DNA of 64,000 bases, from contig JAQGDQ010000002.1 of NCBI GenBank assembly GCA_030141605.1, forward strand, positions 868,001 to 932,000, written 5' to 3'. Shown one piece after another: positions 3,201 through 42,527 of the stretch (its first letter is position 1; every line of letters begins with the position of its first letter). A program made the translations under genes and the position numbers. Below the pieces are notes generated by a model. It was given only the letters and a program-made list of their open reading frames with translations. It made no database searches and was not told where the DNA came from. Source of the stretch: Tubiluchus corallicola. Lineage: Eukaryota > Animalia > Priapulida.

Positions 3201-3562
3201 CACATTCACACATACATGGTGATAGTCTCAAAACAAAGTAAAAATTTCCTACGCAATATCGTTGTAAGGGGTGCTCTATTGTCTAATGTCTGTCTATTGA
3301 TTGATCTGCTGTGTGGATCGACAGTTTTTTCACCATGTAGACGCATGTGAACAGCATGCTGTCACCGGCGGTGAGTGAACGCACCTTTATTTATAGAAAC
3401 TTTAATATATGAGGCACATTATGCCCAGGTTTGTGGACAGGTCTACTGAGTTTCCTGTTCACACCGTCAACTTCACGCACACATTACCACGTAAAATTTG
3501 GACTTTGATACCAGTCACTAAAATCAGAGTTTCGAGTAAAATGCCGGGCGATTCGTACCCAT

Positions 3563-6500
3563 CTAATGACCGTACCCACCCCCGTAACCGCTTGGAAATC
3601 CTTTCAAGTTTGCAAGCCCACCAAGCCCTTTGATGTTGCCAAGACCTCCTATCATTCCCAAACTTCCAGATCCCCCACTGCCACCCCCACCATAACCACC
3701 TCCATAACCTCTCTTTGGCATATTTTCCATGGCTGCTTGTCGGTGAAATCCCATGAAATCACGGCTTCTGCCATATCCTCCACCTCCATGTGGATCACCT
3801 CCTCCTCCGTGCGGATCACCACGACCACTACTACTGCTACTGCTGCTATGTGAATAACTTTGGCCACCAGAAGGCGCACTAGGAGCTGCATGGCCACCAC
3901 TAGGAGGACCGTAGACCATTGCTTTCTGAGGCGCTTCTGGTGGAGATGGTGGAGCAGGTGGTGCTGGGGGCGCTTTTCCACCACCACCGCCGCCACCACC
4001 ACCACCATGGTCATCGTCAAATGAGAGCCCTTGATTACTTGAAGAGCTGCTATGCTTTGAATGATAATCATCTTTGTTGTGATAATCGCCTTGGCCGTCA
4101 AAAACACCCTTATCTCCGTGCCATTTCTTAAATCCATTGTCCTGGTATTTCTGTGAGCCGCCGCCATCTTTGTGCTGATTGTGAAACTTGTATTTGCCAT
4201 TACCTTTGCTGAATTGAAATATTCCTTCACCTTTATTTTTTGACACTTTTCCGTTGAGTTGGAGAAATCCTTTGCCACCATTGTCTTCCTTATCTCCTTT
4301 GCTACAAAATAATTATTTTGGGTTTATTTTGTACGTACACTTACCGAATGTTAATAGAAATTTACTAACATAAATTCACAATGAATCAATTGTTTATTTT
4401 TCGCTAAAGTGCCGTTTGTTAAAGTTTCCTGGAGCTTTTTGCTAGTTAACTCATCTTTAAAATGTGCTAGACTATTGGCATGGTGCTCTGGACAGTAAAC
4501 TGCATGGCTTCTTACTGACTAAGTTTGACTTTATTTTTATGTGTTTTTCTATGTGTATGGCAATGAACTCTAGCAGATAGAAACTCACATGCAAAACAGT
4601 TAGCACCATTAGATCTGATTTTTTTTAAACCGCGCGCACATGGTCGGAATTTTGTTGAAAAAATGCCCGGATGCTTCTGTTTAAAAGGAAATATTTATTT
4701 CATGAACCTCCAGTTTTTATAAAATCCAGAATTTGAACCAATAGAGTACCCAGCGCCTTGTGATCAAGAAGGTCCCCCTTTTTGTTAATACTCGTCGGTC
4801 AACCCAACTTCTCAAAACTATTTGCTTCGAATTTTGCGATAAAAAGATAGATAGTAAAGCTCGTTTCTGGTGCTAGCGCCTGATTTAGACCTAGCGGGCA
4901 GACATTTCACAGTTAGGGCACCTTATCATACAAACTAACATGCAAGAAACATACAAGACTAATTAAAAGTGAACTCAAGTGAACGGCAAACCTTATTGTT
5001 ATAATATACAAACAAACCCTTAAACGTAATTTTTTACTTTTTAATACAGCCATGAAACTAATAATTTTATTATTGTTACACTTTAGAAAGGTGTGGAACC
5101 TCTCTTAAGGGACGGGGCACTTGCCCTTTGACCCCTTAATTATAAATCCAACTTAGTGTCTCATGACTTTTGCCAATGTTAAGCTTTACCTGTCGTACGT
5201 CAACATGTGTGCGTATTTTTGCCAGTCATTGTCTGCGTGATACGCTCCCCATTGTGAAGAAGAAGACGGAGCTGAGCTCCCATATCCTTGAGAGAGCACT
5301 GCTGTCGCCTGAAATTGTCAAACATGTTTAAAAACAAAGCTACTTGATAATTAAGAATGAACTTTCAATATTAAACCAGCGTACAAAATATTCTAGTTTA
5401 TGATTTTGCACTTTGCCAATAGATGGAGCCACATCTTTTGCAGGTGACGGAAAAGTGCTGACAATTTTGGATAATGCTATCCACCAAACTAATGTTGAAC
5501 CAATAGAATTTGGTTCAACGAAGACCAACAATCAGTTTTAAGCATAGTCGACGGGAAGCAGTCTTGAGGATGAGAAAAAACTAAGTAATCGAGAAAAAAC
5601 AGGAAGATTCCTGATAAAGTGTTACAGCAGTCACAGAAAACGACCGATAGGGCCTGCTCTACCACTAGGCAAACTAGACAGTTGTTTAGTTAAAGTAACT
5701 CTTTAATTTATAAGTTCGTCTTAGATAATGACGTAGTTACAAAGTATTATATACGTGTAATTGCTTATGTGCACAACATTTTCTGAAGCGAACTTCTTGC
5801 GTAATTTTCACGCAAAAATGTGTGATTCATTCACGCTAACCAGGAACTGTCTTCCTGCAACAAAACACTCTTCTTTCGCTTTATTTTGCTTCTTATGATC
5901 AGTTACATCATTTCAGGCACTACTGGCACGTTACCGTACTTTTGGTAAAATATTTGTATTGTATGCATAAAGTAGCTGCTGAGTAATTTTTACTAGCAGC
6001 AGATCCTTCTGTTAGTAAAACAATTTTTCTTGCGTTAGCATTTATTTAATTGTCGCAGATAAGAAATCAAAGCATTCGAGAGCGTAATACGAGAAACGAA
6101 AGATAAAATAGCCATAAGACAACAAAAAAGTCACTAAGTAGTTGCACCTAGACCAGATGAATGAGAAGATGATGAAACAAGTGAAATGAATGTCGTGAAA
6201 AAGAGGAGTTAGGTTTTTAGGAAGAATAACCGACGGCAGTACGTAGCTGATGAAAACCAAGCAGAAACAGTTTTACAGATGTCCACCCATCCATTCAGTA
6301 TCCATGCTTGACGTGTTTTAATTTAGCCTTTAGTCTGTCCCCCTAATTCCAGATCTCAATTCTTCTGATGGGAAGCTCACAATTTTTTCTGTAATAACTG
6401 TGTACACTGTGCAGTCTCTGCAGTCCTATCCTGTTTGTGCCATAGGATACGCATTTGTTCTAACTACAATCAAAAATTTCCCTGTGAGATGAAAAAAGAA

Positions 6501-14236: not shown

Positions 14237-17200
14237 TTAAATTTTCGCTGATTCATGCAAGGTTCTCATATCGCGCATAGCTTTCTCGATACCAGCTCTG
14301 AAACGTGTTGCATCCTGAAAAGATAAAGTAAATAAATGAAAATATAAACAGTAAACATACAGATTACAGAGATTTGAGACTGCCTTGAGTGAGTGTAAGT
14401 TTCTAATTTTTTTTGAAGCCCACATAGTGACAAATGCACCTAATATTAGCAAAACCATAATCAATCATAAATAAATAATAAATTAACTTGAAATTATGAA
14501 CTATACAGCAGGATAATGGACAGGCAAATGAAAGTCCTCTGTAGAGAAACTAGTGTATGCTATAATTGTCTATGTTATCCGAAAAACAGTGATGCATCAA
14601 CATACAGGAAGAGTCGTTGCACAGTAATCAATGATATTTCGGTGAGATTAATGTAGGTACAATTGCTAGTTGCTATGTTTCTGCAGTGCACAGTACAAAT
14701 TATTTTTGGTACAAATTCTTGTACTCGCATTCTGATATGGAAAAATGTTGTTCTGTTAAAGACCATACTCATAAAGCACTGATTACTTACCGTAACAGAA
14801 GATGACTTCTTAGCAGACACATGAAAAAATATTGTTTCTTCACCAGCAATGATGTACGACACACCGTAGCCGTCATCAGCAACAGGGCCAAAACCACCGC
14901 CAGCACAAATGTACTCTGGATGTTTTTTAATATCCCACCGGTTTGTTTGTGAGTGAGGTGTCTATAAATAGTATAAAAAAATATGTGTATCATGATCTTC
15001 AATAAATCAGCAAAATATGAAGGACAACACTTTCTTATTACTTTATAACACTTAAAAAGTGGTATTTACATTTGCACAATCAAGAAATATGTAACAGTAG
15101 TTAAATAATCGTGATTATTAACAATAGATTAATCAAATCAATAACAATTACAAACATGTATAAATCCACATAATCGGCAATTGAACAGTAATTCGATTAA
15201 AAAATCGAGAGCAAAATATACGTGTTACACACTGACTAAAAGGCAGTGTTATAGCACAAATAAATGGAATCTTTGCATTTTTCTTTGTCTTTCTTACGCA
15301 AATTGTGAACCATGGAGTTGCAAACTGGGGGCTTCAAATTCATTGGCACATGAAGTATGTAATGACATAGTCACAGAGTAGTTAAAGAAAAAGCAAGCGT
15401 ATCTGTAAAAACAGTTTGCGAGGATGAAAATGGCAGACAGCAACAAAAGCCATGAAGAAATTTATATGCTTATTCACTGCAATCATTAAAAAATATGGCT
15501 AAAATGCTAAAAAATCGCAGCAAAAGATTAATCGTGATATCGAATTACAAGAACAATATTATAATCCAGTTACAAAATGTCAAAGTCGCCATCACTACCT
15601 ACTTAACAGAAAATTATTACTCTCATTTTAATAAAAATAAGCACCATACATTTTTATTTGAAAACTCTAAAACACTATAATATACATTCTTGAATTTCTT
15701 TTCTGAACAATTTTGATGGTAAAACTGGCATATGGATAACAGGTGTCATGTTTGAGTGGATAGATGCATACGCTTTTTGTGAGTGGCCACCATGAGTTCA
15801 ATACTCACAATGGGCAATATAATATCATCCATAAGCCTTGGCTATTTACCTCATAGAAAGATGATGATCATACACTCGAACCTGACTATAATACATCTAC
15901 TGGTTCTACTTATGTTATGTCCTTTATAATAAGCCAGGCTCCCATCATGCCATAAACAACTAGTTAAGAGGGCCGTGCTTTTGAACGCTGTGTGGCTTGC
16001 GCGTGCCAAAGTGAAAAATATATATATACTGGCTCTAGTCTGTAGTAACTGCCAAAACAAAGCTATATATTCTAAGTAAATGGAGTGTTAGTAATAAAAG
16101 CAGTTTTTAAGAAATTTTGTACATAAGTGAAACGCAAACTTACAAAAAATACCAGTTGTATTAACTGCCCGCAAAAAAATATGTTTCAAAAACATACTGT
16201 ACCTGACTGGTTGACAGTTTCCATGGCTCACTCAACACCTTCTCTAGGAATGGAGAATCTTCCTCCAAATATCGTGATACAACATAAAGGCAGAACAGAT
16301 GTCTATCAACACCTTTGCCTAACATAGCGTCCTTGTACCGATTCACGTGCGAATCACAGGCTATTCTTAGTAATCGAATTCTTTCCTCGTCCTACACATA
16401 AAGAGAAGAAATACTTAACTTATAAAACAAATGAGGTACAATTTCTCAGTTGTGACAAAGTTCAGAACAAAGTGAAAATCAAAATTACTTTTTTTAAAGC
16501 AGTTATATCAAGTTTTAACTATTGCCTTCTTTTGCAACAGCACCTTGCACAAATTCTTGATAACATAGCAGTCTTAAAACCTTTTGTTTTAATTGAAAGC
16601 TGCTTTGAAACAAGGCTAGTGAAAAAATGAACTTATCTGCTTACATTAGAATTTGGGTCTTCCATTGCACGCACAAAGGCACATGATTCAAAGCTTACAG
16701 GTCGTACTGTCTCTGTGCGACCTTCGCGGAACAATCGTGTCATTGAAGCTTCGTACGTCAGATCAAACCGTCCTGCGTCCTGGAAAAATACAGTCAGTAC
16801 TAACAGAACTTCATGGCTGTTTGCCTACAAAGTTCTTCGAAAGGTAATTACTAGATCTACAATTACAGGAATACTAGAAATAAATCAGGGCTCATATCCT
16901 CAAAATTGTTAAAGTCACAATCCTGTGCAAATTGCCTCAGAAAATAGTATCTTCACAAAGGTGCTTTAAAAATTTCGAAACAATAGCTTTCATCTAGGTG
17001 TTTTGAGAAAAGTTAAAGACCTAGAATCTTAATTACATGGAAATTATGTAATAAATAAGTTAAGATCGCAACTTTTTGAGAATAAAGGTGACACCCACAA
17101 TTTTGGTCCAATGTTGACATATCAGCAAAATGGTTAAATGTAGGTCAGTCTCAGTTATAAACAGCAAACAGAAAAGTGTTATGGAAGCAAATGCATAAAC

Positions 17201-20200
17201 ACTAAACATATTGGGAGGTAGATTAATCTTAGTTCCTCTCTAGTATGAGTCAAAATATGACAAGAATTCACACAATTTTTAGGATCTTGAAATAGAGCAA
17301 TCTTTAGTTAAATAATGTTACAAAAACAAGAATAACAAACAGGGGAATAAACAAACACTTAACCAGAAGTTTGTTAAATAACAGAAATAAATGGATTATT
17401 TTTATAATTATAATTCTCGAAATAATTATTAATGATGGAAGAAACCCACAATTATTGAATTTCTCTAAACATAATTACTCAAGAACAGAAAATGTGAAAA
17501 ATTCAGATTGTGTTCCCATTTTCCACATTTCCTGTCTTTTGAGCAAGTTTGATTTCAAAAAATACAACAACTATGGATTTGTTCAGAAATAAATGCACTT
17601 TTAGTTTTAATTTAGTTAGAAAACGGTCAGAGCAGTTTTATCAGATGAAATTATTACCCGATAATAAGCCAGCTGCAGCGACATCTGAAGATAAGCGTCA
17701 GGACTAACTTTGCACGTTTTAATGAAGCCCTTGCCATATTCGCGAAACACAGACAACCGCATGTCTACATCTGCTGCTAAACTCTGTCCAATAGCTAGCT
17801 GCTTGTGAATGACTTTAACGACCTGAAAAAATCGCTCATATAAAAAATGCATCATATAAAAAATGTAGTCAAATAAATCTGTTTATAATTGCAACAAACA
17901 AATTAAATATTAAATTCTGAAGAATCATCATAACCACTAAAGCCTAATGAACAGGTATCCTAGCTGATTCTACTATAAGTAAAATGCACTAAATCATGCA
18001 GTTTGTACAGTGAGTCAGTAACTTGAGTCAACGAAATAATCAAAATTCAATTCTGGCAGACGTTTAACTGTGCAATGATCTCAACCGTGACTTCATAAAA
18101 GTTCCTACACTTCCTACAATCGTTCTACTATAGTGTGCATAGCACAAGACATTTTTAAAAAGAAGCATCACATCTGCCAAAAATTCAATGCAGTATTAGT
18201 ACCTCAAAAGCTACTCTTCTTAAGCCAAAAAAAATCAACTCTTATATAACTATTAAATTGATATTGTTAGTAATATTGTATTTTGCAGGATCTTTTAAAC
18301 TACCTTTTGAGCTGGAATATGAGCCTTATATTAATTACACCAACAAACCAGTGAAAAACTCAAGAGATAAGATGAAACCATTCATTTTTTATAAACAGCT
18401 GTATTTTAACTTAAAAATTAATAGATGAATTGAAGTTCCAAGGTTCATTAATTAAGACTTTAAAGTTAGAATGTCACAAAATCACAATGTGAAAAAAGTA
18501 ACGAATTCGATTCCAGCTACATTTGGAAACCGCGACATCATGCCATAATGCAGAAACATAAAGTGGATTTTGCTTCTAATGAAATTCAAAATTTTAAGAA
18601 GCTTTTTAAAATGAGGTTGTAAACTCCAATTACTAAAATGAGAACAGTAAAAAACTACATACCTCATCATTGAGATCCCATTTGAGTCTCTGAATGGGAG
18701 GAAGGTCGGGGTTTACTTCTCCAAGACAGTGCCCATCTTCTTTATAACTAAAAAAATAAATATTAATCATTAGTATCCTTAGCTTTGATATTAGTATACA
18801 TGCACATATGCAAATAAATGAATTTTAATGTGATACTAAACAGAAATAAGTCACATTTCAGTTCAAAAGTTTCTGAATATTGAAATATCGCAACTTATTT
18901 TCAATATAATCTGTTTTTAATTAAAATAAGAAATCCATTAGAGATTGCAGCCAGAAAAGTAAAGTGTCAGCACTGCGGTAGCCATTGTATTACAGAAATA
19001 CCCATAATACCACTGTGACAATAAATGTGATTAAAAGCAAATTACAAATGAAGTGTTTCCAATTAAATTATGTAAAAATTGAATATTAGTTAACTAAGCT
19101 AACTGTACACATTTTTAGTATCAATGAAGAAACACAATTACACAAACCAGAAGTAGAAAAAAGCATAAAACATAACTTACATGACAAATAATGTGATCAA
19201 CATGCAACTTTTGCGAATATTTGGGAAACAACAGCCCACAACAGGTTAATACTTATAATGTTAGTATAATTACACAGGAAATAAAATAATTCATGCTAAT
19301 TTATGCACATAAAAAGTAACAAAAATGTAATGCTTTAGAACTCTGAGAAAAATCCTAATAATTTCATCAATAAGTCATAAAAAATTATTCATTTTTAAAA
19401 CATGTGCAAAACTAATAAGAAACTGAAACCAGGTAAAAGCTTTGAAATTACTGCTATCAACGTTAGAGATTTTGTTTTGTTCCTTAAAAGTCTAGCTTGC
19501 AAATCTTACAATCCAAAGCCCTTGACCATTTAAATTTTAAATTACCAGAAAGACAATTTTTCACACACAATGTGATGCACATATAGTCACAGAAAAATGG
19601 ATTTCACACTGCAACAGCTAGAGTTTAGGTATTTCAGAGAGTACAATCGTAATGAATGATTTTGGTGTTCCAGAGGTTAAAATAAAATGTAAAAGAAACC
19701 ACTCTGTTTAAAAGACAGAAACCTAGCTCCTAAAAACACAATTTAAAAAGAGAGCTGGAGAATACAGATCATTTCATTTAAACAAATGACAATAACTGTG
19801 ACGAAATTTACATAAATTTTTAATCTTACACACATCAGCATAACAGAATAATGAAAAACTCTTCTTGGCAAAGTAATTATTTGCACATGTGTCGGGCTAA
19901 CAGTAACATTTATCCCAAAGATCAATTTTCTTATTAGTTGTTACACATGTTTCAGAAAAACAAAATTATCTACAATGTGATGAAAGACTCTCCAAAACTG
20001 GAGACATTTAAGGTTTTAACCACAGTTCCTGTTGTGACTGCGAACCTGTATTTATTTGCCATTTCACTGAAATGAAAATGATGCCAAATAATTTTTTTTT
20101 GAATTCTGAGAAATATTCAATTAAACCATCTCCTATGTTAGCTACAAGCATCATCAAGATTAGCCAGACTATTAATCATTTTACGCAATAGAGTTAGTGA

Positions 20201-23200
20201 AATATTGCAGGGATCTTGTTATAGGCACACTGCATACACTTCTAACAGTATTTCTATACATGCATTCCAGCAAAATTTTATTACAAAAAGCTAGTCAATT
20301 TTGTAGCTTGAATCTTAACGTACAGTGCTTTACCGAACATTCAGAATAATAAGATAAGTACTGTTAGTGGCAATTACTGAAAAATGCCCATGACCACTTA
20401 AATTCCTACATGTACATAGTACTCTCAACAGTGCTTAACGACTCGTAACTGGTTAATGGATACAGACTTAACGTATGTTTCATTTACTTCACAACAAGTT
20501 CTTCTCATGCCAGCAACATGGAGCGTTGATTGTAGTGATCTTATTACTTACTCACGGAATGTTTATTGCAAATTTTATGTTGAGCAAATTATGTTGTGAT
20601 ATGCTATGTGTTAAGCAAAATACACAATCCAATGGTTCAAGATTAAAATTCCAATAATGACTTATGAATTGGAAACAAGTTTTCATTATGTTAGAACTAC
20701 ATACCATTGAAATCTCCAGATTGAGAAAGTCAGATTTCCATATAAACAATAAATATGTAAGGCCTTTTTCTTGACTGCAAAACGGATCATGGGTAAAGAA
20801 GATGAATTTGGGATTCTTAACGAGCTAACAAGAATCGTAAGAAAAACACTGCATAATTTCTAACAACTTTTTCACATGACTGCAACTGTTGCGGGAGTGT
20901 CAGTGATGCATGTAATGTTTATCAAAGTAATGAATGTCACTCACTCTTTCGGCATTTTCAACTCACAGTCCAAAAAACTCACAAAAAACTCCTAAAAAAT
21001 TTTTCCATGACAAAAGTTGACACTCTTGCAACTTCTATTAGACAATAAAATTACAGATAAATTTGCTAATGAGTCTGCAGTCTTGCTCATTTAATAAGTG
21101 TTCAACTAAAAGAAATCAGCAGCCTTACTCAACATCTGATACTGTTGTGGCAACAGTCAGATAAATAAGTGAATCTGATACACATTCTTGTAGCAAAGTG
21201 CGAATAGCCAGTAGCAAAACAAAATGCATGTATGTTAGCTTATGCAAGAAACTCACCACCTACCGCAATATATCATGGTCGCAAAACATCATTTCCTCCC
21301 ACAGGTAGCCCATGATTGGCGCGTCTGCCCTACAAGGTGAAAAGAGGCAGGAAAAAGATGGATAGGTTTAGTTGATGGCACACGGAAGTGAGGAAGGAAG
21401 TGAAGGAAACAAAAAGGGGTTGTTTTAGTGCATGCAAAATCAACAAGTGCAAAGGAAAAGGATATAAGTATTAGGTTGATAACCAAAGATTAAAAAGGAA
21501 ACAACGGAAATGTATTAAAGCATTAGCACCAATATCAAAAAGGAAGGACAAACAGTGTTGCAGACAAAAAGCACACAAACAAGAAATAAGACAAATAAAC
21601 AAAACAATCAACAGCAACAGTAGTGCAGCAGCCAAGTCCCAAAAGTTGAAGAGCAGTTTAAGGGTTTTGACATCATGCAGTCAAAAAATAGTGAAAACCA
21701 TTTAAACACAATACAGTACAGTTTTTTTGGTAAATGTGCAGAAAAATAATGAATTTTGTTAGTGTTGTTATTAAAAAACAATATAACCAATGAGCAAGTG
21801 GATAAAATGTGGTTTTAAAGCACAAGTTACATTTGATTGGAGAGGAAAGGAAATGAAAAAAAGAAAAACAAATTAATGAGACACATAAAGTCACATGATC
21901 TTTATGCAGTTAAACATATATGTATGTAAGCACCACACAAAAGTGTGACAAACCGTATCTCGAATCTGTCTGCACCAATAAAGTACTCTTCTGTGAACGC
22001 GATTATTGGCCCGTCACCCCTGCCAATGAACAACATACTGTCATAAAGGCAGTGTTGGCACTTCAGAAAAAAACACCCATGACAAGAATTGGCCAGGTAC
22101 CAAGCATTTTTGTATTTTTTTCTTCGATTCGTAATTCTTAGCATACATCTGTCTACTAAATCCACCAAATTTTTGTCTACTACATGAATATTCGAATTAC
22201 GTTAACTTGCCCAATTAAGATTAAATATTCTAAGAAAAGGGCTAAGGTTTGCATTTTGGAGGATGGCGTTTCTTCAAAGTATCACAACACTTTGAAGATT
22301 AAAAAATACTAAATTATTTTTGAGAGGGGGCTTGATCATGAACAAGGTAAGAAAAAGCCAAAACAGAAATGTTCTTCAACTTATCCAGGGCATGATGCAC
22401 AAATGAACCAATCCAAATAGTTGTGTTTGCAAATGATGAGAAAAATAGCAAACGCTTGGCCGTGGATGTACAAAAATCCCATGTTCATTACAGTAGCTTT
22501 TGGAACGCTAACTTTATTCTTGTAAATGGTGATTCTTTCATTTTGCAAGCTAACTGGGCAGACAGACAAAGCACTTTTAAAAAACTGACCGAACTGGACT
22601 ACCATCATCATGAAGGGTATAATATTCAGCGACCGTATTGAAAGTTGGTGCATCAGCCCTGTCAACAAATCAAACTGCAAAATTGCATGGTGCTGAAATA
22701 AAAATTTATTACCCAGGACACGTTAAAGTTGAGTTCCACACATCGCTACACTGACACAATCATTCCAAGCAAACCAAATACAGTTACACGACACACTACA
22801 AAACATTATACTTGTTAAAACAAATCTTCATTACTTGCAGTCAGAACATCTTTTTAATTTGTGGAGTTATAAAATTTAAGTTTCAACAGTTTGGAAACAA
22901 TGATAAAAATTTTTTCTGCTCGCTGTAATGAAATAAAAAATCCCTTGTTACTTCAAAAACACACACTGCACAAAGCATTAGCTGTTGGTGACCTATCACT
23001 TAAACCTTTTTCTAAAAAAATTTTATGTGTATGTGCGTGTGTTTGTACTAAAAAACAGTGAAAAAGCATACCACAAGGTAAGAAGTAAACAAAACAAGAA
23101 TTAGGGAGATCTGTGATCTCGAAACTGAGAGTCCTATTCAATAATGTGTGCTTTCTTCCCATCTTACTTAGACCATAACAAACTTAGAAAGCAGTTAATT

Positions 23201-26200
23201 TTTAAGAATATAATATAACGAAAAACAACCACATAGGCACACCCAAAATTTCCACACTTTCACTGATGTACACGAGTAAAATTTACTAACACAGAATCTA
23301 TTCAACTACCAGTGGCGGATTACCCACAATGCACACTAGGTGTGTGCGTAGGGGCCACCAAGCCTTGGGGGCCTCAGTTTGTAGGTCAAATAACTCAAAA
23401 ATTAAGTTTGTTAATTAATTGGGAATGAAAAATAATCATGTTGAGTTTTAGAAATGCTTGATTTAAATCATTACCTACAAAGTTTTGCAGTTGCTTTTAC
23501 AGTCCAGAAAATGTTTTATTTGACGCAGACTTCAAAACAAGTGTCTTAGTGAAGCCTGAATTTGCCATAGTAGAAATCACTTGAAGTACTTCACGCAGTT
23601 CTTAAATTTTAATGTGAAAAAGTAACCATGTTGACTAATGACTAAGTAATTATAAAAAATAAGATTTAGAATAGCACAAATTGCTAGACTTGTTTGCTAA
23701 TATAGGCCTCCAAAGACCTCTAAAATGCAGTTTATAGTTTACCTACTAGTATTAAATGACTAAGGCCTAGTGTAATAAAAATCACTGCACTGGTATTTAT
23801 GTCTACATATACTTCTAGGGGCCTCTGAAACAACTTGTAGTCTAATGCATCAAGATACAAGTAAATACTTTTTGTTTTGAAAGAAAAAATTAAAAAACAA
23901 TTACCAATTTTAACCTATTTAAACATCCAGAGTTCATCTGCTTTTATGGATAAAAAAGGCCTCAAAAAGTACTAAAATATAGGAAATGCATTGGTATCCT
24001 AGGACCCCACTGGGGAAGCTTACAAAACTACGAAGACCCCTTAGTGTTTTGCTTAGGGGCCCCTGTATTCGTTAATCCGTCACTGTCAACTACTATCACT
24101 AAACAACAAAATGCAGTCATAATTATCACTGCTCAAACATATTCATATACCACTCTTCATTTGCCTCATAAGCTAACTCCATCATCGAGCTTGGTATCGG
24201 AGCATCTAAACTGAACACAATGTTCAAAATTGCTCACGTTAAACCGAGTACACATGTAAAATGTAATACAATTTACTGGTGCACGAAATAAGAAGAATCA
24301 AGGAAAATGTAGTCTAGATCAAGTTACACTTCACTAAATGCAAAGTGGAAAAGCTTGAAATCGACAATTTTGACTTAACCGAGTAGCAGCATTAATTTTA
24401 AAGCGCTTATAAATAATTTAATCATTAATAGAAATTTGTAGTCTTCCTCGTGAAAATAACCATTAATAATTTGTCAGGAAGCAAGGAACAGTTGATTTCT
24501 TTGCATAAAAGTATTACTCTATTTTCTGAACATGTATTAATTTGACATATACAAAAAAGACTGCTTACCAGGAATGTTCAATATTCAGGCCCAAGTGGCC
24601 ATTCTTTAAAACGATGAAAGTAAAGCTTTTATCGAACCAGCGATTGTAACAATTTCCATGCAACATGGAAGCTGCCCAACCATCCATTTTAGATCTGTCA
24701 TCCTGTAAATAACCGATAAATGATAAGAAAGGTGATAGGTACATAAAAATTCGTCTATTCTTAACTTTCATAATTACCTATAAAGCAGTGATTTCCAGCT
24801 TCATGCCTAAACCATTACCACCAGTTTATCCCATAAATTCTGTTAATTCAGACATACAAGTCTACTGCTATGCTTATTAGCTCAACCCTGAATAGTGTAA
24901 AGCTTTAGCAATACGCATGTTGAAAAAGCATACATACTTCATTCAGTCACATCTTGTAAACTACTTTATTGATAGCCCTCAGTCGCAATGTTTTAAAATT
25001 ACACTAATTTCTAATATGCTATACTATTATGACTTACCGGATCATAGTAAAACTCATCATCATCAAGTGCCATGAAAAAAGCAGCTTTTTCAATCACGTC
25101 TAATGATGTCTTGTTCATGCCTTTGCGGAAATGTGTCATTCTGGCTTGTGCCCAGGTAGCACGTTCACCTGCAGTGAGAGCTGCCAAGTACTTTTCCCCT
25201 GGTGCTGGCTCACTCTCATCTGCTATAATTCTATTTACCAACCTGTTAAGGAGAAAAAATGGCATTAAATAATTATCATCAAAGACCAAGCTTTCTGAAT
25301 TTCCACAAGTTAATATGCCATTCTTATTCAGTGAAAAAGCACAACAGTTCTCCTTTAGTCATTCCATTTACACATGACTTATAACAACTATAATAATAAT
25401 AAAGTATAATGATGCAAATCAGAGTACAAATCAAAAGGCACATTTTCCCGAAGACTCATTCATATTTTCTAAAATTTATATGCACAAAATATTTCACCAT
25501 ATTCACACTAAACGTAGTGCTGCATCCATGTACTCATGCGGGGTTAGAGATATACCTGGATGGTTATAGTATGTGCTTGGCCACAAATATTATGCAGCAG
25601 CCCTGATCCTGGTTAGTAAATGGATGGGTAACACTGGATATTTCCATCATTGAGCGAGAATGTATACGCATCCAAAAGAGGCTTTTTTGATGGTTCAGCG
25701 TCGCATCTTACAGGTTTGTTCTTGATAATGAGTTAAGAACCAGTCTGATACGTTGAAAAGGCTCAGTAATTTTGGAAAAAAAGACTAAATAGTATTTTCA
25801 TTTCTGTAATTTAACCTCATTGGAATTTATAAACATATTGCAGGAAGTAGTGTATCAACAAGGGTATAGATTAAAACAGCCTGAAAATTATACCTGCAAT
25901 TTTATGCAATCTGTTTAGTCACTCCAATTCTATTACACTTACATTATTTCCTGTGAAAAAAATCATTTCCATTTCCCAGGAAAACATGTCATTATTTAAT
26001 GATGATACACTTCCAGCCTTCCATCCTTGATACAATGCAATGATTATTAAGCCAGAACTTATTGTTCATATCATCAAATCGTAAGGCACATATTGTTAAC
26101 ATTTTCAGAAATACCATAGAAGACACAGCACTCACACTTCTAGTTCTGCAGGATTTAGGAGGCGACCTTTCCGGTAACATGGGAGCTTGAAGAAACGACC

Positions 26201-29200
26201 TCTGTGATAAACTGCAACATGCGTGCTGTCATGCAAGTGCATTAGATGATCTGAAAATTTAAAACAGACAAATTAATATAATATATACTATTTCACTTCA
26301 TCTGAATGTGCTTCGGTGGTGCAATATTTAAGGCGCAATTTTTTAAATATAATTCTCATGCTCTACATTGATTTAAAGTGGCTCAACACCATGTCTGGTC
26401 GATTCTAAGAATGTTCTATGTCAAATACAGTAGCAAAAGATGAAGGGATTTTTGAACCCATGTTAAAATTCTTTCCATGCTCGTACTTCATTGAAGGATA
26501 TGCTACCGGATAATTGAAGAAACTAAATTTGTCCTAAAATACAAGCAAAAATACATGTAACATGTTTTGGATACACGTGCGAGTGCATGTAAGAAATGCA
26601 AAGTCACATTGAAAGCAGGTTAGTCGGTTGATCATAAATGCATTCCGACATCCTCCTATAATTTATGACGTAAGAACAAGAAGAACAACGAAACATACAT
26701 AACATGCAGACGTGTCTTTTCTGAGATCTAACAAGTACGTTTTTTAGAGTGGAGGCTAGCTAGCTTGTAAAGATAAATAATACTAAGAAAAATGACATAA
26801 AACATGCAATAGCTTCAAACATCAACTTTACATAAACCTATCAGATATTCTTTTAAAAAATGTACAGTGAAACAACATAATTGTAACATGTATTCAATCA
26901 TGCACATTTGAAATGCTTGCAAAGTCAGGAAAAATTCCTAGCTAGAAAATGTGAGGATGCACACAAAATTTTAAAAATCCAATAACAAAAGTTAATAAAA
27001 TTAAAGATTCTGAATATTTACCCGTATCTATTCCTGGTATACGCGTGGTGTTAAATATACGCTCGTTCTGTGCTGAGCACAGTGGTATGAGATTTTGCAC
27101 AACTATAGGTGGAATGAGCTGCCGATTCAGACGGCTGCGAAATCGCAGCATGGCGTTGATGCAGTTTGCTGCTCGTGCTGCCTGTATGTGGGTAGGTTTG
27201 ATGAGGATTGCATCCTGAAGTTTACACGAGAAAAATGACATAATATATTTGTGTGAAAATCAGCCACCAACATTGATTTCTATAAAAGTCAGAAATAGAA
27301 CTCTATTATACAGTTAATACAAATTAAGAATCTATTCATGTACCCAGCATTTCCAAACAGTGTCACGCATAACCAAAAATTTACTAGTCAAACAAATACA
27401 TTAATAATTTACTGTTAACTTAATATAGCAAATTAAAGACAAAATTATCACTAATTATTTGCTCAATGTTCTAGAATCTGGATACACTGTTACGATATGC
27501 AGTTCACTGGTTTATACTTAGTCTCAGGTAATCATATTTAAATTTACCAATAAATCGTTAAGAAAAAATAATATTAAATTAATCTAATTAATTACATTAT
27601 TTCAGCATATTAATGTGATGCAAAAAATCTAAGAGAATTGGACTTTCACTTTTAAAAACATACAAAAGTACCATTTGTTGCTGCATCACTAATGTCGGCA
27701 CCTATGAGGAAATAGCACATTATGCATATTGCAGGCATTGGGCAAACAAAAGCTAGGTTCTTAAGAGAAATTAAATTTAAAAATTTGAATTTTAAGACCA
27801 GAAGATTCAAATTCATAATTTCAGAACTATCTATGGCATTAGTTTTTGGATCAAGAAGGCAAATTTCTTTTGAAAATGTTAGGCATCTGCAAGCCCACAA
27901 TCTATAAAGATATATAAACTATAAAGTGATAGAGATGATACTCCTTGACAGAGGGGCGATGACTCTGCAATAATACTTTAAAATGGCTGCAAAACAAAAC
28001 TAACTGTGCTACACAAACCTTTAGAAAGCCATGAGCAGATACCAGGTTGAGTAAAATACCAAATTTATGTACACTGTGGGTACATGCAGTATCTAAGCAC
28101 CGAATTGTAATGACATACATTTTGTAATATAATTACACATATATTTACATATTTGCTTTAAAAACTTACAAAAGCACCATTCGATCTATAAGAAGAAATG
28201 TAGATTATTGCCACACAGTTTTAACAAATTAAGCCATGTTTACCAAACGTTCGGAATTGTGCAAGCGTTAGTGAGTGTGCGTATGCGATTTGTGGCACAG
28301 CGAAAAATCTCTCTACATTGCTTTTAATGCACAAGTTGCCAGGCCTTCGTTACTGTGTTTTGGACCCTGGGAATGGCAGAACGCCACTTTAACGATTTTT
28401 ATACAAGGATTAGCTAAAAAAAAATTATGTCACACTTAATACTTGGGAAGGAAATACTGCTGTGAAGCACAAGTGCCATTAAGCAGCAATGTTTAAACAA
28501 TAATTCCATTCCACATATTTTGTAAACCACTAGTTGTTCAGGAGTTATGTTGCAAGTGCTTATAAACACTTGGATAGGCAATAACACGTACGCAATTCCG
28601 GGCATCTGGCAAATGTAGTCTTACTGCATAATGCCAATAACTAGCTACAATAACCAGCTTACCAGCTTATGGTAGAAAAAATAACAGTAGTTAGCTTTAA
28701 AACTCACACAATAGGTAAGTCAAAGATCAAGCACAAAAAATAATAAGACAAGTTACATAGTTGAAGTTATCAAAAGAACACTACATGCAGAAATCTACCA
28801 TTTACGAAGTTCTAGTCAGAGAGACAACGTTTGTGCACCACACAGCTAAAACCGCCTTGTTTGAAGTTAAACTGCAACAACTGATTCACCCATGTGAGTT
28901 TAGAATAACTGATGTTTTCAAAGCATGGGTACTGATTTTGAATGGTTAAAAATGCTTGGTTTATTTGTCTGGCAGCATTAATTTTAGGTGAATATTAAAC
29001 TAATAATTTTAACCTGTTAGTACATAATCTAAACCTTTTCTCTCTCAACTGTTAAGTATGAAGGATAGGTGAACATCTTTGTCAAAACTTGATTCGTCCA
29101 AAAAAAGCCTCCAAGAACAAACAACTAATGTTAATATCAAAGGTAACTCAGAGTAAGTATCAAAATTTAATAAAATTATTCTATTCCATTTTGCCCAAAT

Positions 29201-32200
29201 TGAAATAAAATAACTGACAATAAAAAATTTCGGCTATGTGATTATAAAAAAATCTAATTAATTAAGTAAATAAAGCCTCACATTTAAATTTGTTATAACT
29301 TGTAAGAAACAATTTTAATGAAGCTTTTTCACCTCAACACCTTTCTTGGATGTTGTGAGACATCAAGTTTTAACAACATGAATCTTAGGTAGAAGTGCAA
29401 CTCATTCACCAAAGATAAACAGCTTCTTGATATGTAATTGTGTACAACATATTGCATGTAATTATATGCCACTGTGAATAAAAAATAACCTTTTCAGAAA
29501 ATGAAATCTCGGGTGCAGAATAATAGACATGCAAGAAATTAAACATGTTAGTTAACACAAACTCTTAAAAATATATGTATATCTGTGTGAGTTAAATCAA
29601 CTGTACTTTCAAGTACTTAAACAGCAAAAATTTTCAGGATACAATTTAACACATACAATGACGTGTACACAAGTACACATAAGATATCGTAATGAAAAGC
29701 AAAATTCTGAAATTGACCCAACAACAGTAAATTCAAGAGACAAATACTTCATAACTTACGAGACAGTAAAAATTTGAGTTGATCATAATTGGGTTGCGAC
29801 CTGCTAAGTACACAAACTTTTCCCACCAATCAGACACCTAGTAACAAAAACTTGTAATGTAAAAATGCTTAAAATCTGCATTAAAATACATACCAAACCA
29901 TAGTAGTTTGAATTGACAACAACAGGCGCACGCCCTTTGAGGTAAACCATCTCCTCCCACCAGTCAGAAACCTTTATGAAAAAGTCATAACATCTCATTT
30001 GATGGAAAAATTAGGCAGATTTAGAAAAAAGCTACTACCAAATCATATTACCTGCTGATATATGCCTTATTTTTCAAATAACTTTTTGGACAAGAAACTA
30101 CAAAGAATGTGTCAAGAAAATTTTATCATATGATAATGCTATTAGTGAACAAAGGAAACACTGTTTACACAAACAATGAGTTTATACTGCAAGCAACCAT
30201 CAACCCATCAAAAGCGAGTAATAAAGTACAATCACAAAATTACAAATAACTAATTACTTGCCACTTCTTCAAACAATGATAAACACATTTTGTGCAACAT
30301 CTCACATCTTCTGATGTCTTTTTAACTGCCCGTTGCACAAGCCATTTTAACTGTCAAGCCATTATCTATAATACATAGAATGATGCATATTATCCTATGT
30401 ATTGCACAAAAATACCACAGTATCCAGTCTACTACGAACAACCAAGTTAACACGCCAATCACTTACGTAATTTGTTGCCCACCAAGATTTCAGCCACAGA
30501 TACCTCTGAAGTCTTTTACCAAGGTTGTTTTTGAATTCTTCTGCCAAATGCTCCATATCTTCATATTCTGCATCACTGAGCAGCGGACGCACCGTTAACA
30601 GAAACTACATTACAAAAAAAGTAAATAATAATTTTAGAATAAACAATTATTGTGGAATGAGCACTACACACAAGATAATCGTTTCAAATGCAATGCAAAA
30701 ATGATAATTTTTCACACCAATGGCAGGATATTACAAAAAGTGGATGTATTATCAAGTAACAGGAATAACTGCCAGATGTTCTAAGTCAAGCACTCAAAAT
30801 TGCCCAATTACAATTTTTTGTTTCTTTTGGCTAAATAGTGGTAGTAACAGTAACAGTAACCGTACTAGCAATAGCAGACAAGCAGTATTGAGAGGCTTAC
30901 ATAACCTAAATGTTTTTCGATGAGTGCTTTAGCTAAAAATAAAATTACATAACAAATGCCTTGAGTCACGAAACATACCTTATAAGGAGATTGATTAGAA
31001 CAGTTTTAAGTTTTCTGATAAAAATGAATGTCTTACCCTCTGTAATGTGTCATTCAGTTTAGGAAGAGGCAACTTAGGAAGAGATCCTTGGTAACTGTAA
31101 AGATGTGGATTTCTACCTTTCAACAGTTTAACCAGCATCTGAAAATAAATCAGAAAATAATGCAAAATTTAGTTATTTTTTCTCAAAAAGTAAATTTTTA
31201 GTAATTACATCAGTAATCAGATCAAAACTTATTAATATTTTTAATATATTTGAATGCAATACTTGTGTAAAGTGCTTTATATCATCCACCACATTCTTCA
31301 GTTAACAATAACGTGTCTGCAAAAAAATATTTACCAAAAAAAATTTCTACTGGAAAGTTTTTTCAGAAATTCAATGACAACAACATGACTTGATATTAAT
31401 CTTGTTTTAACTTATAATCAACAGTAACAGCAATGAAAATTTGCTCTTCTGCAGATTTTCTGGATGACAGAGCGACAGATTTATTAGGGTCAAAATTCAT
31501 TAGATGGGTCAAAGTGACAGGTATGAGTGACAGATGTGAATGGCAGGGTGACAGACTTTGATAAGGACATTTTTTTATTTTTGAACTAATATTAATGTAG
31601 TGTACATAACAAAACAATCAATGTTTTATTTGAAGGAGTTTAGTTCTTTCTGTAGCTCATCTCACTACATTTCTTACTAGTGGATTTGTTTACTCTTCAG
31701 GATAGGCATACAGCTCAGCAGGTCATCTAGTGAGCTTTCGTGTCAGTCTCACATTAAGTTGCAATAGAATTTAGAACACGCACAGAAAAATTATTCCAAA
31801 ATAAAGAAGCTAAAAAACTTACAGCCCAGATCTTGGTCTTCAAGGACATTTTCCCTCGTGGTTCATTCATCCAACCTTGGTACATGAAGAGCAGTTTAAG
31901 AGCATACCGAATAAATAAGATTAGGCCAAACCAAGCTAGTATACCAAATGTTAACGTGCTCAAATAAAGAGCAAATGTGGGTGCCAGATATTCCCTAAAC
32001 AATAAAAAATAGTCACTTGAAATGCAGATTGAGATTTGTTAGTTACTGATCTGTTACTCTTAAATTTAGTAATCAAACAAAAATAAAATCTTTTATCAAT
32101 GTGCTGCATTTCAGAACAGCTGGTCAATATTTTTGAAACAAATAATTAAAAACAAAAACGATTAACAAAAATGAAAGTTTGGCAGAAAGAACAGTCGAGC

Positions 32201-33438
32201 ATTGAGAACCTGTTCAAGACTGGAGTACAGTCTTGTGATGTACACACTGCACAAAAGTGCACATGCCTTATTGTTTGCACTTACCAGCCCACGTAGCACA
32301 TAACATGTCTACATAGATTTTTTTCTCAGTAGCAACAAAACCTTACTGCATTACTTAGAAGTGAGAGATGTTTTTACTGTGATTAACAACACAAAGTTAA
32401 CTAACAAAGCTTAGACACCTTACTTTAGCCAAACTTAATAGTATTGGTACTTGATAGCAAGTTATATAAAAACAAGATGGACAACAGAAAACAAAATTGC
32501 AGTTTAAAAGATGTGAAAAAATGTGCTTTTCAGAGAATTTATCAGTATTTAATCTACTTTTGTCTTTAATTAGTCAGACAGTCTCATGGACCTTGCAAAT
32601 AGCAAAAGGCAATTGCCCAACTTTAATTGTCAGATTTTGACAAATAGCTATTACCATGTGCAACATGCAGTTATTCCTCCCAATTTATCATTTAATTTGA
32701 CAATTGACTTACCATGGAATATGATGTTCAAATGCATCAATGTATCCAAAAGATGGATCGATGCCAACACCAAACCGCAATGTAAACACAATGCCTATAG
32801 CTAGTGCCAAGGTGTGAGGTTCCAAAGGATAAAGTCCAGCTCTAAGGTCATGCTGTGAACGATACGTTATAAACGATTAACAGGGGTTAAATAAATATGA
32901 AGGCTGAAGAACACTGCAACATCAAACACTAATAAAAGTAATAAATATTACATAACGCAAATATAAAATTGACCCTATTCTTTCAATAACTGTTATGCAT
33001 TAAACTTGATTCTTACACATGATGATAATAATTTTGACAATAATTTTCATAAAATTATACAATAGAAGAATTAGTACAAAATGCAATATAAATGTGAAGA
33101 CAAAAATATGAACTATTGCATAATAACAAATGCAATAAAAATGAAAATTTTGAACTGGTTAACTTCAACTCATTAATATAAAATGCTGAAAGGATAATTT
33201 TGATCACTGTGATAAAGACGATTAAAACAGCATTTAACTATAACTTCGGCTTGATATCAAAAGAATTTAAATAAATTAGCATGCTTTTTCAATTTACCCA
33301 ATGTCTTTGAGCATGTTTGTAAAAGGAACGTATGCCACTGATCCAGATGGATGACAGAACCTCACGATTAAAGTCCACCTCTAAACCTTCATGGGTAATT
33401 TGGAAAGAAAATGCAACTGCTTGATGGGCCTCCGCCAT
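14237..33438 (-). CDS. CPT1: Carnitine O-palmitoyltransferase 1 (CPT1-type), 17 coding exons, ~768 aa with the canonical-like exon 11D
   Basis: Exons (minus): 33438-33298 ([12 protein letters not shown]), 32852-32713, 31994-31823, 31138-31037 (SLPKLPLP), 30604-30467 (KSWWATNY), 29971-29894 (VSDWWEE), 27214-27022, 26250-26136, 25242-25038, 24702-24569 (NRWFDKS...EHSW, catalytic His at about residue 471), 21329-21264 (or an alternative), 18747-18663, 17822-17658, 16779-16645 ([19 protein letters not shown]), 16391-16203 (GVDRHLF), 14961-14791 ([16 protein letters not shown]), 14314-14237. All introns GT-AG with consistent phases; total 2307 nt. An acceptor upstream of 33532 implies a non-coding first exon. 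Confidence 0.97.
21264..21329 (-). CDS. CPT1: CPT1 exon 11D (closest to vertebrate CPT1): (W)[21 protein letters not shown](R)
   Basis: Acceptor TTGTAG, donor GTAGGT, 66 nt, phase 2/2; resembles vertebrate HSWADAPIVAHLWE. Confidence 0.93.
21332..21914 (-). promoter_or_regulatory. AG-exclusion zone with candidate distant branch point and polypyrimidine tract for CPT1 exon 11D
   Basis: No AG on the transcribed strand (no CT on plus) from 21899 to 21332. Branch-point-like TTTAAC (21914-21909) and CTCATTAAT (~21880-21872) lie just before a ~33-nt pyrimidine tract (21872-21840). Confidence 0.75.
21954..22019 (-). CDS. CPT1: CPT1 alternative exon 11C: (W)[21 protein letters not shown](R)
   Basis: Acceptor TGGCAG, donor GTTTGT, 66 nt, phase 2/2, no stop, same length as 11D, D-G-P-x6-E-x5-D. 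Confidence 0.85.
22590..22658 (-). CDS. CPT1: CPT1 alternative exon 11B: (W)[22 protein letters not shown](R)
   Basis: Acceptor TGACAG, donor GTCAGT, 69 nt, phase 2/2, no stop, WADAP plus E and D at the same offsets as 11D. Confidence 0.85.
23310..24085. mobile_element. Non-autonomous hAT-type MITE between CPT1 exons 11A and 11B
   Basis: TIRs CAGTGGCGGATTA / TAATCCGTCACTG; perfect 8-bp TSD TCAACTAC (23302-23309 and 24086-24093); subterminal GGGGCC motifs. Confidence 0.9.
24151..24210 (-). CDS. CPT1: CPT1 alternative exon 11A: (C)[19 protein letters not shown](C)
   Basis: Acceptor GTTCAG, donor GTATAT, 60 nt, phase 2/2, no stop, D-A-P-x6-E motif aligned with exon 11D. Confidence 0.75.
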
Positions 33439-37882: not shown

Positions 37883-41544
<3,662 letters not shown>

Positions 41545-41606
<62 letters not shown>

Positions 41607-42527
41607 GGAGAGAGGGAGAGAGGGAGAGAGGGAGAGAGGGAGAGGGAGAGGGAGAGGGAGAGGGAGAGACACAGAGAGACAGAGACACAGAGAGAGACAC
41701 AGAGAGACAGAGAGAGAGAAAGACGCAGAGAGATAGAGAAAGACATAGAGAGACAGAGAGAGACACAGAGAGACAAAGACAGAGAGACAGAGAGAGACAC
41801 AGACAGACAGGGAGAGACACAGAGAGACAGAAAGAGAGGCAGAGAGAGAGACAGAGAGAGAGACAGAGACACAGAGAGACAGAGAGAGACACAGAGAGAT
41901 AGAGAGAGACAGAGAGAGAAAGTGTGAGACACAGAGAGACAGAGAGAGAGACACGGAGAGGCACAGAGAGCAGGCGAGAGACACAGAGAGACAGAGAGAG
42001 ACACAGAGAGACAGAGACACAGAGACAGGGAGAGACAGAGAGAGACAAAGAGAGAGACACAGAGAGACAGAGAGACAGAGAGAGAGAGACACAGAGAGAC
42101 AGAGAGAGACACAGAGAGACAGAGAGAGAGAAAGACGCAGAGAGATAGAGAGACATAGAGAGACAGAGAGAGACACAGAGAGACAGAGACAGAGAGAGAC
42201 AAAGAGAGACAGAGAGTGACAGAGAGACAGAGACAGAGAGACACAGACAGACAGGGAGAGACACAGAGAGAGAGACAGAGAGAGACACAGAGAGACAGAG
42301 AGAGAGACACAGAGAGATAGAGAGAGACACAGAGAGACAGAGAGAGACAGAGAGACAGAGAGAGAGAGACACAGAGAGACAGAGAGTGAGACACAGAGAG
42401 ACAGAGAGAGAGACACGGAGAGACACAGAGAGCAGGCGAGAGACACAGAGAGACAGAGAGAGACACAGAGAGACAGAGACAGGGAGAGACAAAGAGAGAG
42501 ACACAGAGAGACAGAGAGAGACAGAAA
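41545..42527. repeat. GA/GACA compound microsatellite (right half) starting with a pure (AG)n run
   Basis: Pure (AG)n 41545-~41598, GAGAGG variants to ~41667, then degenerate GAGACA/CAGA units with an internal ~0.45-kb duplication. Confidence 0.97.

Follow-up and report, generated by a model that had tools for sequence, protein, structure and literature searches.

A 568-nt AG-free zone before one of four exon 11 variants suggests a distant branch point in a priapulid CPT1 gene

We analyzed a 64,000-nucleotide (nt) stretch of DNA from the priapulid Tubiluchus corallicola (GenBank assembly GCA_030141605.1, contig JAQGDQ010000002.1, positions 868,001 to 932,000 of the forward strand), referred to here as the window. 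Its minus strand carries a gene for carnitine O-palmitoyltransferase 1 (CPT1) in which exon 11 is present in four versions, 11A to 11D, and the intron between 11C and 11D is nearly devoid of the dinucleotide AG. The gene has 17 coding exon positions from 33438 to 14237, which form a single open frame whichever of the four exon 11 variants is used. Positions are those of the window; plus and minus signs count from the 11C donor and the 11D acceptor, respectively.

Searches with exon 9 and exon 7 returned CPT1-family proteins (PF00755) with local identities of up to 72%. In a 17-row tree of the query and 16 homologues chosen from 42 exon 9 search matches, the protein paired with Priapulus caudatus CPT1 at 100/100, on long branches. 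The top match of the exon 7 search was another Priapulus CPT1. Exon 10 ends in EHS, whose His we take to be the catalytic residue of the CPT family. Candidate versions of the segment that follows were scored with a profile of 66 distinct homologous 14-mers, which ranked 7955 stop-free 14-mers of the gene. The relevant parts of the gene are as follows.

14237 to 33438, minus strand: CPT1 coding span from the ATG through the stop codon; its length is 767-770 codons, according to the exon 11 variant used
24569 to 24702, minus strand: exon 10, ending in EHS plus two bases of the next codon; joined to 11D in a contig of run X6
24151 to 24210, minus strand: exon 11A candidate, 60 nt, (C) plus 19 residues, in frame, profile rank 4 of 7955
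22590 to 22658, minus strand: exon 11B candidate, 69 nt, (W) plus 22 residues, in frame, profile rank 3 of 7955
21954 to 22019, minus strand: exon 11C candidate, 66 nt, (W) plus 21 residues, in frame, profile rank 2 of 7955; weak donor ACG/GTTTGT
21264 to 21329, minus strand: exon 11D, 66 nt, (W) plus 21 residues, present in the spliced X6 contig, profile rank 1 of 7955
18663 to 18747, minus strand: exon 12, the common downstream exon; the loose end of the X6 contig resembles its start

To judge from their sequences, exons 11A-D are duplicates, all four in frame, of the segment that follows the catalytic His. Besides taking the top four profile ranks, all of them keep both residues that are invariant in the 66 homologues. 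Exon 11D is the ancestral-type variant. Exon 11C reads EHSWGDGP, like EHSWGDGV of CPT2, versus the CPT1 consensus EHSWADAP, and 11A reads EHSCLDAP. A first-pass annotation of this DNA regarded the AG-free zone as independent support for 11C being a real exon. The profile rank and the invariant residues do argue for 11C, as does an open frame in a diverged copy of the region with three listed differences in this exon; the zone alone is weak support, because similar zones are found upstream of ordinary cassette exons as well. The same annotation was right that all cassettes are multiples of three (60, 69, 66 and 66 nt). The frame is preserved in AB, BC and CD joins and when all four variants are skipped, so double inclusion of 11C and 11D would escape nonsense-mediated decay (NMD).

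Sequencing data came from six runs, all in the form of contigs and none recorded as RNA. One contig from run X6, tentatively classed as RNA-type and spliced, joins 24568 to 21328 with GT-AG ends. Because this contig joins exon 10 to 11D, the 11D acceptor is used, together with the exon 10 donor, and in this contig the acceptor is the first AG after the zone. We looked for lariats and 11C junctions in four runs on 20400-25400 and three runs on 21570-22300 and found none, a result that is uninformative either way given how little RNA these runs hold. Splicing of 11A or 11B was likewise absent from the reads. The profile ranks show homology between 11C and 11D, and inclusion has been seen for 11D, in one contig.

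The intron between 11C and 11D contains the following elements.

21330 to 21953, minus strand: intron 11C-11D, 624 nt, GT..AG, 66% pyrimidine
21332 to 21899, minus strand: AG-exclusion zone, 568 nt, AG count 0; the X5 copy gains none
21900 to 21901, minus strand: lone internal AG of the intron, at +53/+54, 9 nt 3' of the A at +44; no X5 difference listed

The transcribed strand contains no AG in the 568 nt from 21899 to 21332, exactly as first annotated. The zone is bounded by the AG at 21901-21900 on one side and by the 11D acceptor at 21331-21330 on the other. Its composition (118 A, 66 G) predicts 13.7 AGs, and an AG-free result never arose when bases were shuffled 20,000 times, nor in 20,000 shuffles of 30-nt blocks. 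At the gene's intronic probability of G after A (0.158), the chance of an AG-free zone is about 1.5e-9. AG is the sole dinucleotide absent. The whole intron has 0.32 AG per 100 nt, compared with 3.7-7.5 in the other 19 of the gene's 20 introns, where the longest AG-free gap is 179 nt. The observation that AGs are common elsewhere and close upstream of the A, B and C acceptors was also borne out: AG-free zones at the other 20 of 21 acceptors span 10-63 nt, and those before exons A, B and C are 20, 14 and 16 nt long. A single longer gap exists in the window (1001 nt at 41541-42544), and both it and the next in rank (336 nt) lie in TC simple repeats. The 11C-11D intron has no repeats of note, with four 2-copy families at 70-79%. 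Depletion extends over all parts of the intron, from +55 to +195 (P = 0.002), +196 to +400 (P = 0.0005) and +401 to +580 (P = 0.005). The AG-free zone is a real feature and is unique among the 20 introns of this gene.

A natural test of AG avoidance was in hand in run X5, which carries the same species label. One unspliced contig of 877 nt covers 21211-22060 and is about 8% diverged, with 67 differing letters and 12 gap letters. We itemised 60 and 11 of these; the remainder are probably near the contig ends, and up to five may fall in the 3' half of the zone. Inside the zone, X5 has 52 listed substitutions and six indels and gains no AG. A total of 29 substitutions are of an AG-creating kind, yet none of them makes an AG; the indels and adjacent pairs do not create one either. 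When the same substitution classes are placed at random in the zone, 6.0 new AGs arise on average (P = 9e-4, or about 0.003 after removing three CpG-type changes). In the mirror control, GA was created five times versus 5.8 expected (two adjacent pairs were corrected by eye). The signal is weaker when the zone is divided into thirds (P = 0.40, 0.014 and 0.12). These comparisons point to selection on the AG-free state of the zone, which is maintained in one copy at about 8% divergence. The annotation had proposed looking for AG depletion in orthologous introns, and the single diverged copy bears this out (0 against 6.0). A metagenome scan for such introns kept three loci from 235 candidates and yielded no intron sequence; one locus (L001) spans the exon 11 region with 48% identity and lacks introns there, and the other two are 16-residue matches (L002 and L003).

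The X5 contig begins at an adapter-like loose end and stops beside a plus-strand A run, which fits one amplified molecule. For this reason, and because contig depth gives no basis for ranking the parts of a gene, depth over the C-D region (22 in X4 versus about 1-11; 12.5 in X5 versus mostly 0-4 outside a repeat) was not used as evidence. The stretch 23400-24100, in the A-B intron, is a dispersed repeat, to which numerous contigs match in part and where depth is elevated in X1 and X5.

Candidate branch points and tracts for exon 11D are listed below.

21909 to 21915, minus strand: branch-like GTTTAAC, A at 21910 (+44 from the 11C donor, -580); no adjacent pyrimidine tract; unchanged in X5
21872 to 21878, minus strand: branch-like CATTAAT, the preferred candidate, A at 21873 (+81, -543); CACTGAT in X5, still YNYTRAY
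21839 to 21872, minus strand: 34-nt pyrimidine tract directly after the +81 motif; two U added and one C-to-U change in X5
21758 to 21764, minus strand: branch-like CACTAAC, A at 21759 (+195, -429); best U2 match; TACTAAC in X5; weak tract; predicted open
21330 to 21382, minus strand: last 53 nt of the intron, with a strong proximal pyrimidine tract and CTAAA at -39; no listed X5 difference

The annotation had read the zone as the mark of a distant branch point. Whole-intron depletion, the X5 comparison, the motif and tract at +81 and the used acceptor all support this view, and a distant branch point for exon 11D is highly probable when every model that includes one is counted. Under the scanning rule, the 5'-most functional branch would lie well upstream of +195, because AG is depleted in each third of the intron. 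The zone had been said to start at TTTAAC (A at 21910). That motif is present at +44 but lies outside the zone, with the lone AG (+53) 9 nt downstream. A second motif about 80 nt from the donor and a tract of about 33 nt had also been proposed; they correspond to CATTAAT at +81 and the 34-nt tract, which follows the +81 motif and not the +44 motif. Among the 14 branch-like motifs of the intron, the one at +81 has the most pyrimidine-rich next 40 nt (82%), whereas the sequence after +44 is 55% pyrimidine with a longest run of 4. The +81 motif lies 27 nt inside the zone, so a branch consensus with an adjacent tract is found near the 5' end of the zone, and AG frequency upstream is normal. The X5 copy has three substitutions over the 87 nt from +25 to +111 (P = 0.04), and two tolerated transitions in the +81 heptamer are suggestive only.

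Nearer the acceptor, YTRAY is absent at -15 to -48 of 11D. The CTAAA at -39 resembles the CTAAA at -31 and -30 before exons 4 and 5. The zone also contains two TGCATG motifs, at 21679-21674 and 21436-21431 (minus strand), versus 0.4 expected, and no listed X5 difference touches either; YGCY occurs 11 times versus 5.3 expected. We take these motifs to be sites for RBFOX and MBNL, respectively.

The 5' end of the intron is predicted to fold together with the end of exon 11C.

21866 to 21971, minus strand: predicted hairpin from exon 11C -18 to intron +88; -36.1 kcal/mol, z -5.7, 0 of 200 shuffles

In the predicted hairpin, donor positions -8 to -1 and +5 to +10 are paired, as are the A at +44, the lone AG and +80/+81, nearly all with probability above 0.9. 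The other 19 donors folded in the same register gave z values from -1.9 to +2.2, and the hairpin was the second-lowest non-overlapping site among 1920 sliding windows. Opening the 11C donor is predicted to cost 12.9 kcal/mol, the highest of 20 donors, compared with 8.3 kcal/mol for the +44 motif and 13.7 kcal/mol for the 20 nt after it. If +67 to +116 is kept unpaired, the prediction retains the inner stems, and opening the 11C donor still costs 7.1 kcal/mol. The fold of exon C, intron and exon D as a whole holds one long local hairpin and has a z of -0.67; no global structure therefore bridges branch and acceptor. Rfam gave a single match, which was below threshold (E = 0.13) and outside the intron. 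Seven listed X5 changes fall in the hairpin; three keep pairing by wobble, two break a pair and two are at unpaired positions (pairs were judged by eye). The wobble-kept pairs are neutral evidence because pairing would survive 61% of transitions at paired sites in any case. From these predictions, the hairpin may help block 11C-11D joining.

In alpha-tropomyosin (Tpm1), the distance from donor to branch is about 42 nt. The annotation had assigned the same steric mechanism to 11C and 11D, an assignment with weaker support than the distant branch point, since the motif linked to a tract lies at +81, beyond the limit of about 50 nt, and the +44 motif lacks a tract and is predicted to be paired. 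A minimum donor-to-branch distance of about 50 nt has been described, with 46 nt abolishing splicing in vitro (PMC6692369). A distance below 50 nt was the criterion for 57 human clusters, or 9% (PMC5740500), and a cut-off of 60 nt was applied in a Drosophila study (PMC13762713). The +44 position is under the 50-nt limit and +81 is over it, a limit that comes from other systems and may differ in this animal. Sterics could at most separate C from D and not the other five pairs of the four-exon cluster. The pairing of docking sites with selectors that marks such clusters as Dscam 4/6/9, Mhc and 14-3-3zeta was not found either: the region has 38 ungapped helices versus 33-53 in eight shuffles, and no docking site was shared among the top 25, in a search that counted ungapped helices and that short or bulged pairings would escape.

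We tentatively favor a model, at somewhat less than even confidence, in which the 11D branch point is at 21873 (+81) and the predicted hairpin makes 11C-11D joining difficult. U2AF would bind the tract at +82 to +116 and U2 the +81 motif, with +195 as a possible second site. The first step of splicing would use the exon 10 donor, and the second would take the first downstream AG, 543 nt from the branch. We propose that AGs within this lane have been purged because the spliceosome would use any new one as the acceptor. The lane, rich in pyrimidines, would also offer splicing regulators a place to bind. Other parts of the model have less support. Occupation of +67 to +116 would leave the inner stems (+5 to +64) folded and the 11C donor half buried, with little free RNA from the donor to the branch. 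Exclusion would then come from structure plus proximity and not from a bare distance below 50 nt.

A bolder version of this model, which we consider unlikely, treats the 11C donor and the 11D branch as one RNA switch in a single predicted hairpin. U2 binding at +81 would peel off the outer helices only, keeping the 11C donor locked, and opening from the donor side would select 11C and shut the branch. The 540-nt AG-free lane would let the branch sit at the switch, away from its exon. If true, such a switch would choose among four versions of the CPT1 active site, one of them CPT2-like, in a priapulid-related animal.

Several observations weigh against a branch at +81 acting through the hairpin. 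YTRAY is likewise missing at the same distance from 7 of the other 20 acceptors, and the last 53 nt of the intron, with an 84% pyrimidine tract and CTAAA at -39, are invariant in X5 (P = 0.007), which fits a proximal branch. The +81 A is itself predicted to be paired, and unpaired branch points are preferred in OGDH (PMC7969005). X5 is one contig, and the RNA evidence is limited to one spliced contig, with no lariat and no read containing 11C. An equally strong hairpin, possibly a small inverted-repeat element, is predicted in the middle of intron 13 (17550-17441, minus strand; -35.9 kcal/mol, z -6.4), and at 11.2 kcal/mol, the predicted cost of opening the constitutive exon 12 donor is close to that for 11C. 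The hairpin window was picked after the fold was seen. No compensatory changes are present among the five X5 changes at paired positions, and changes are equally frequent at paired (5 of 76) and unpaired (2 of 30) positions. Exclusion of A and B is outside the reach of the proposed mechanism, and beetle and bivalve gene models carry both copies of the exon 11 equivalent. Such tandem models (P0084, P0138, P0189, P0191, P0194, P0162, P0178 and P0068) may reflect leakage or annotation artefacts.

The zone can be explained in other ways. A distant branch at +81, +195 or both could slow or regulate 11D inclusion, as in PTB exon 11, with exclusion being leaky or left to exon-specific regulators and with a hairpin that weakens 11C or is incidental. 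All of the zone evidence fits this explanation equally well. Both 81 and 195 nt are beyond the limit of about 50 nt, +195 is the best U2 match and is predicted open, and the excess of TGCATG (2 versus 0.4) and YGCY (11 versus 5.3) and the double-inclusion gene models in relatives are in line with it. Distal branch points have been described as chiefly delaying splicing (PMC5378181). It does not account for the zone reaching to within 54 nt of the 11C donor or for the presence at this donor of a strong hairpin, one of two in 19 kb; we regard it as rather unlikely. The annotation's own model, a branch at 21910 too near the 11C donor as in Tpm1 exons 2/3 with the AG at +53 bypassed, seems less likely again. 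Its distance of 44 nt is shorter than the 46 nt that abolished splicing in vitro (PMC6692369), AGs less than 12-15 nt from a branch can be bypassed (PMC1431707), and the heptamer is unchanged in X5. However, the motif has no adjacent tract (55% pyrimidine, longest run 4), is predicted to be paired along with the 20 nt after it (8.3 and 13.7 kcal/mol to open), and would leave the better motif and tract at +81 free to permit C-D splicing unless structure blocks it.

A comparably low probability attaches to an ordinary 11D branch near -39 in an intron purged of AG because it is studded with branch-like motifs and pyrimidine runs that would turn AGs into cryptic acceptors. The invariant last 53 nt with their tract and CTAAA speak for this idea, as do the 14 branch-like motifs spread along the intron. 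Yet the other 19 introns tolerate a normal AG density, and the depletion includes stretches of ordinary pyrimidine content (50-57% in several 30-nt bins). We consider it very improbable that composition, repeats or chance produced the zone. The intron is indeed pyrimidine-rich (66%) and G-poor, but composition-preserving shuffles never give zero AG, there is no repeat of note, and X5 avoids AG but not GA.

Other features of the gene and the window were noted. CPT1 has a second duplicated pair, exons 6a and 6b, at 29971-29894 and 29837-29760 (minus strand), each 78 nt long and reading VSDWWEEMV.. and VSDWWEKFV.., respectively. These exons are only 56 nt apart, with branch-like motifs at +13 and +25, which makes them a textbook short-intron steric pair. 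No within-species variation of the 6a/6b type was found among 46 homologous isoforms listed, and the duplication may be lineage-specific. The intron between exons 6 and 7 holds two micro-exon-like segments with AG..GT(A) flanks, at 28185-28170 (16 nt) and 27701-27664 (38 nt) on the minus strand. Their 3' ends are near-identical; each alone shifts the frame, and together they add 54 nt without a stop. Elsewhere, a 1320-codon frame at 38572-42534 (minus strand) resembles, by eye, an endonuclease/reverse transcriptase of the long interspersed nuclear element (LINE) type. Long TC-rich simple repeats flank this frame and hold the other AG-free runs of the window. Glycine/tyrosine-rich low-complexity frames with GGYGGG repeats, cuticle-protein-like by eye, are found at 3459-4312 (minus strand).

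We compared the CPT1 cluster to known systems. Two variants at the same boundaries after EHSW are present in Tribolium, Diabrotica, Cylas, the mayfly Neocloeon, oysters and scallops, and a single variant among the listed entries in two Priapulus isoforms, Tenebrio and a spider. Unlike the insect and bivalve genes, the gene described here has four copies, three of them strongly diverged. In Drosophila CPT1 (whd), the exon 6A enzyme is more active than the 6B enzyme, and 6A rises on starvation (PMC10879661). From beetle isoforms, we infer that 6A/6B is the same exon as exon 11. This exon supplies the residues immediately C-terminal to the catalytic His, and the Drosophila choice alters activity and follows feeding state; the four variants could therefore tune fatty-acid oxidation. 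Among the hits listed by our literature search, whose coverage leaves out most subscription journals, none described an AG-exclusion zone in CPT1 or a cluster of four exons in this gene.

Vertebrate genes already provide examples of this class of mechanism. Distant-branch exons with AG-exclusion zones include PTB exon 11, nPTB, GABBR1 exon 23, Tpm1 exon 3 and alpha-actinin (Gooding et al. 2006, PMC1431707). The zone before 11D, directly 5' of its acceptor and well above 150 nt, has the sequence features of this class, with its branch adenosine a candidate. The CPT1 case shares with these exons a long zone, a motif and tract at the 5' end, normal AG frequency upstream and an alternative exon. 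It differs in being an invertebrate gene and in having a second conserved tract beside the acceptor. The scanning distance, first proposed to be unusually long, is not unprecedented: the zone before Fugu PTB exon 11 measures 590 nt, and its branch is predicted at -566 (PMC1431707). The branch-to-acceptor distance, if the branch does lie near +81, would nevertheless rank among the longest for clusters of duplicated exons, and this outside vertebrates. The locus bears on whether second-step scanning can extend across 500 nt and on what keeps duplicated exons from being included together when the frame is preserved and NMD offers no safeguard; the X5 copy provides a natural-variation test of AG avoidance. 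Another invertebrate exon pair, in a different gene, is Drosophila Dscam exon 17.1/17.2, where steric hindrance and RNA secondary structure are reportedly combined, going by the title of a 2013 study by Yue et al.

The closest known case is OGDH, whose exons 4a/4b are mutually exclusive; its branch points, mapped at +25 to +41, lie close to the donor of the upstream exon and within a hairpin (Kralovicova et al. 2021, PMC7969005). As in CPT1, the exons of a mitochondrial enzyme are duplicated, the intron is AG-free, pyrimidine-rich and under purifying selection, and candidate branch points near the upstream donor have a hairpin around them. The OGDH branch points have been mapped, the zone is about 280 nt long in the fish case, and two exons are involved; in CPT1 the best candidate, chosen from sequence, is at +81, the zone spans 568 nt, the cluster has four exons, and the predicted hairpin takes in the donor and the exon tail.

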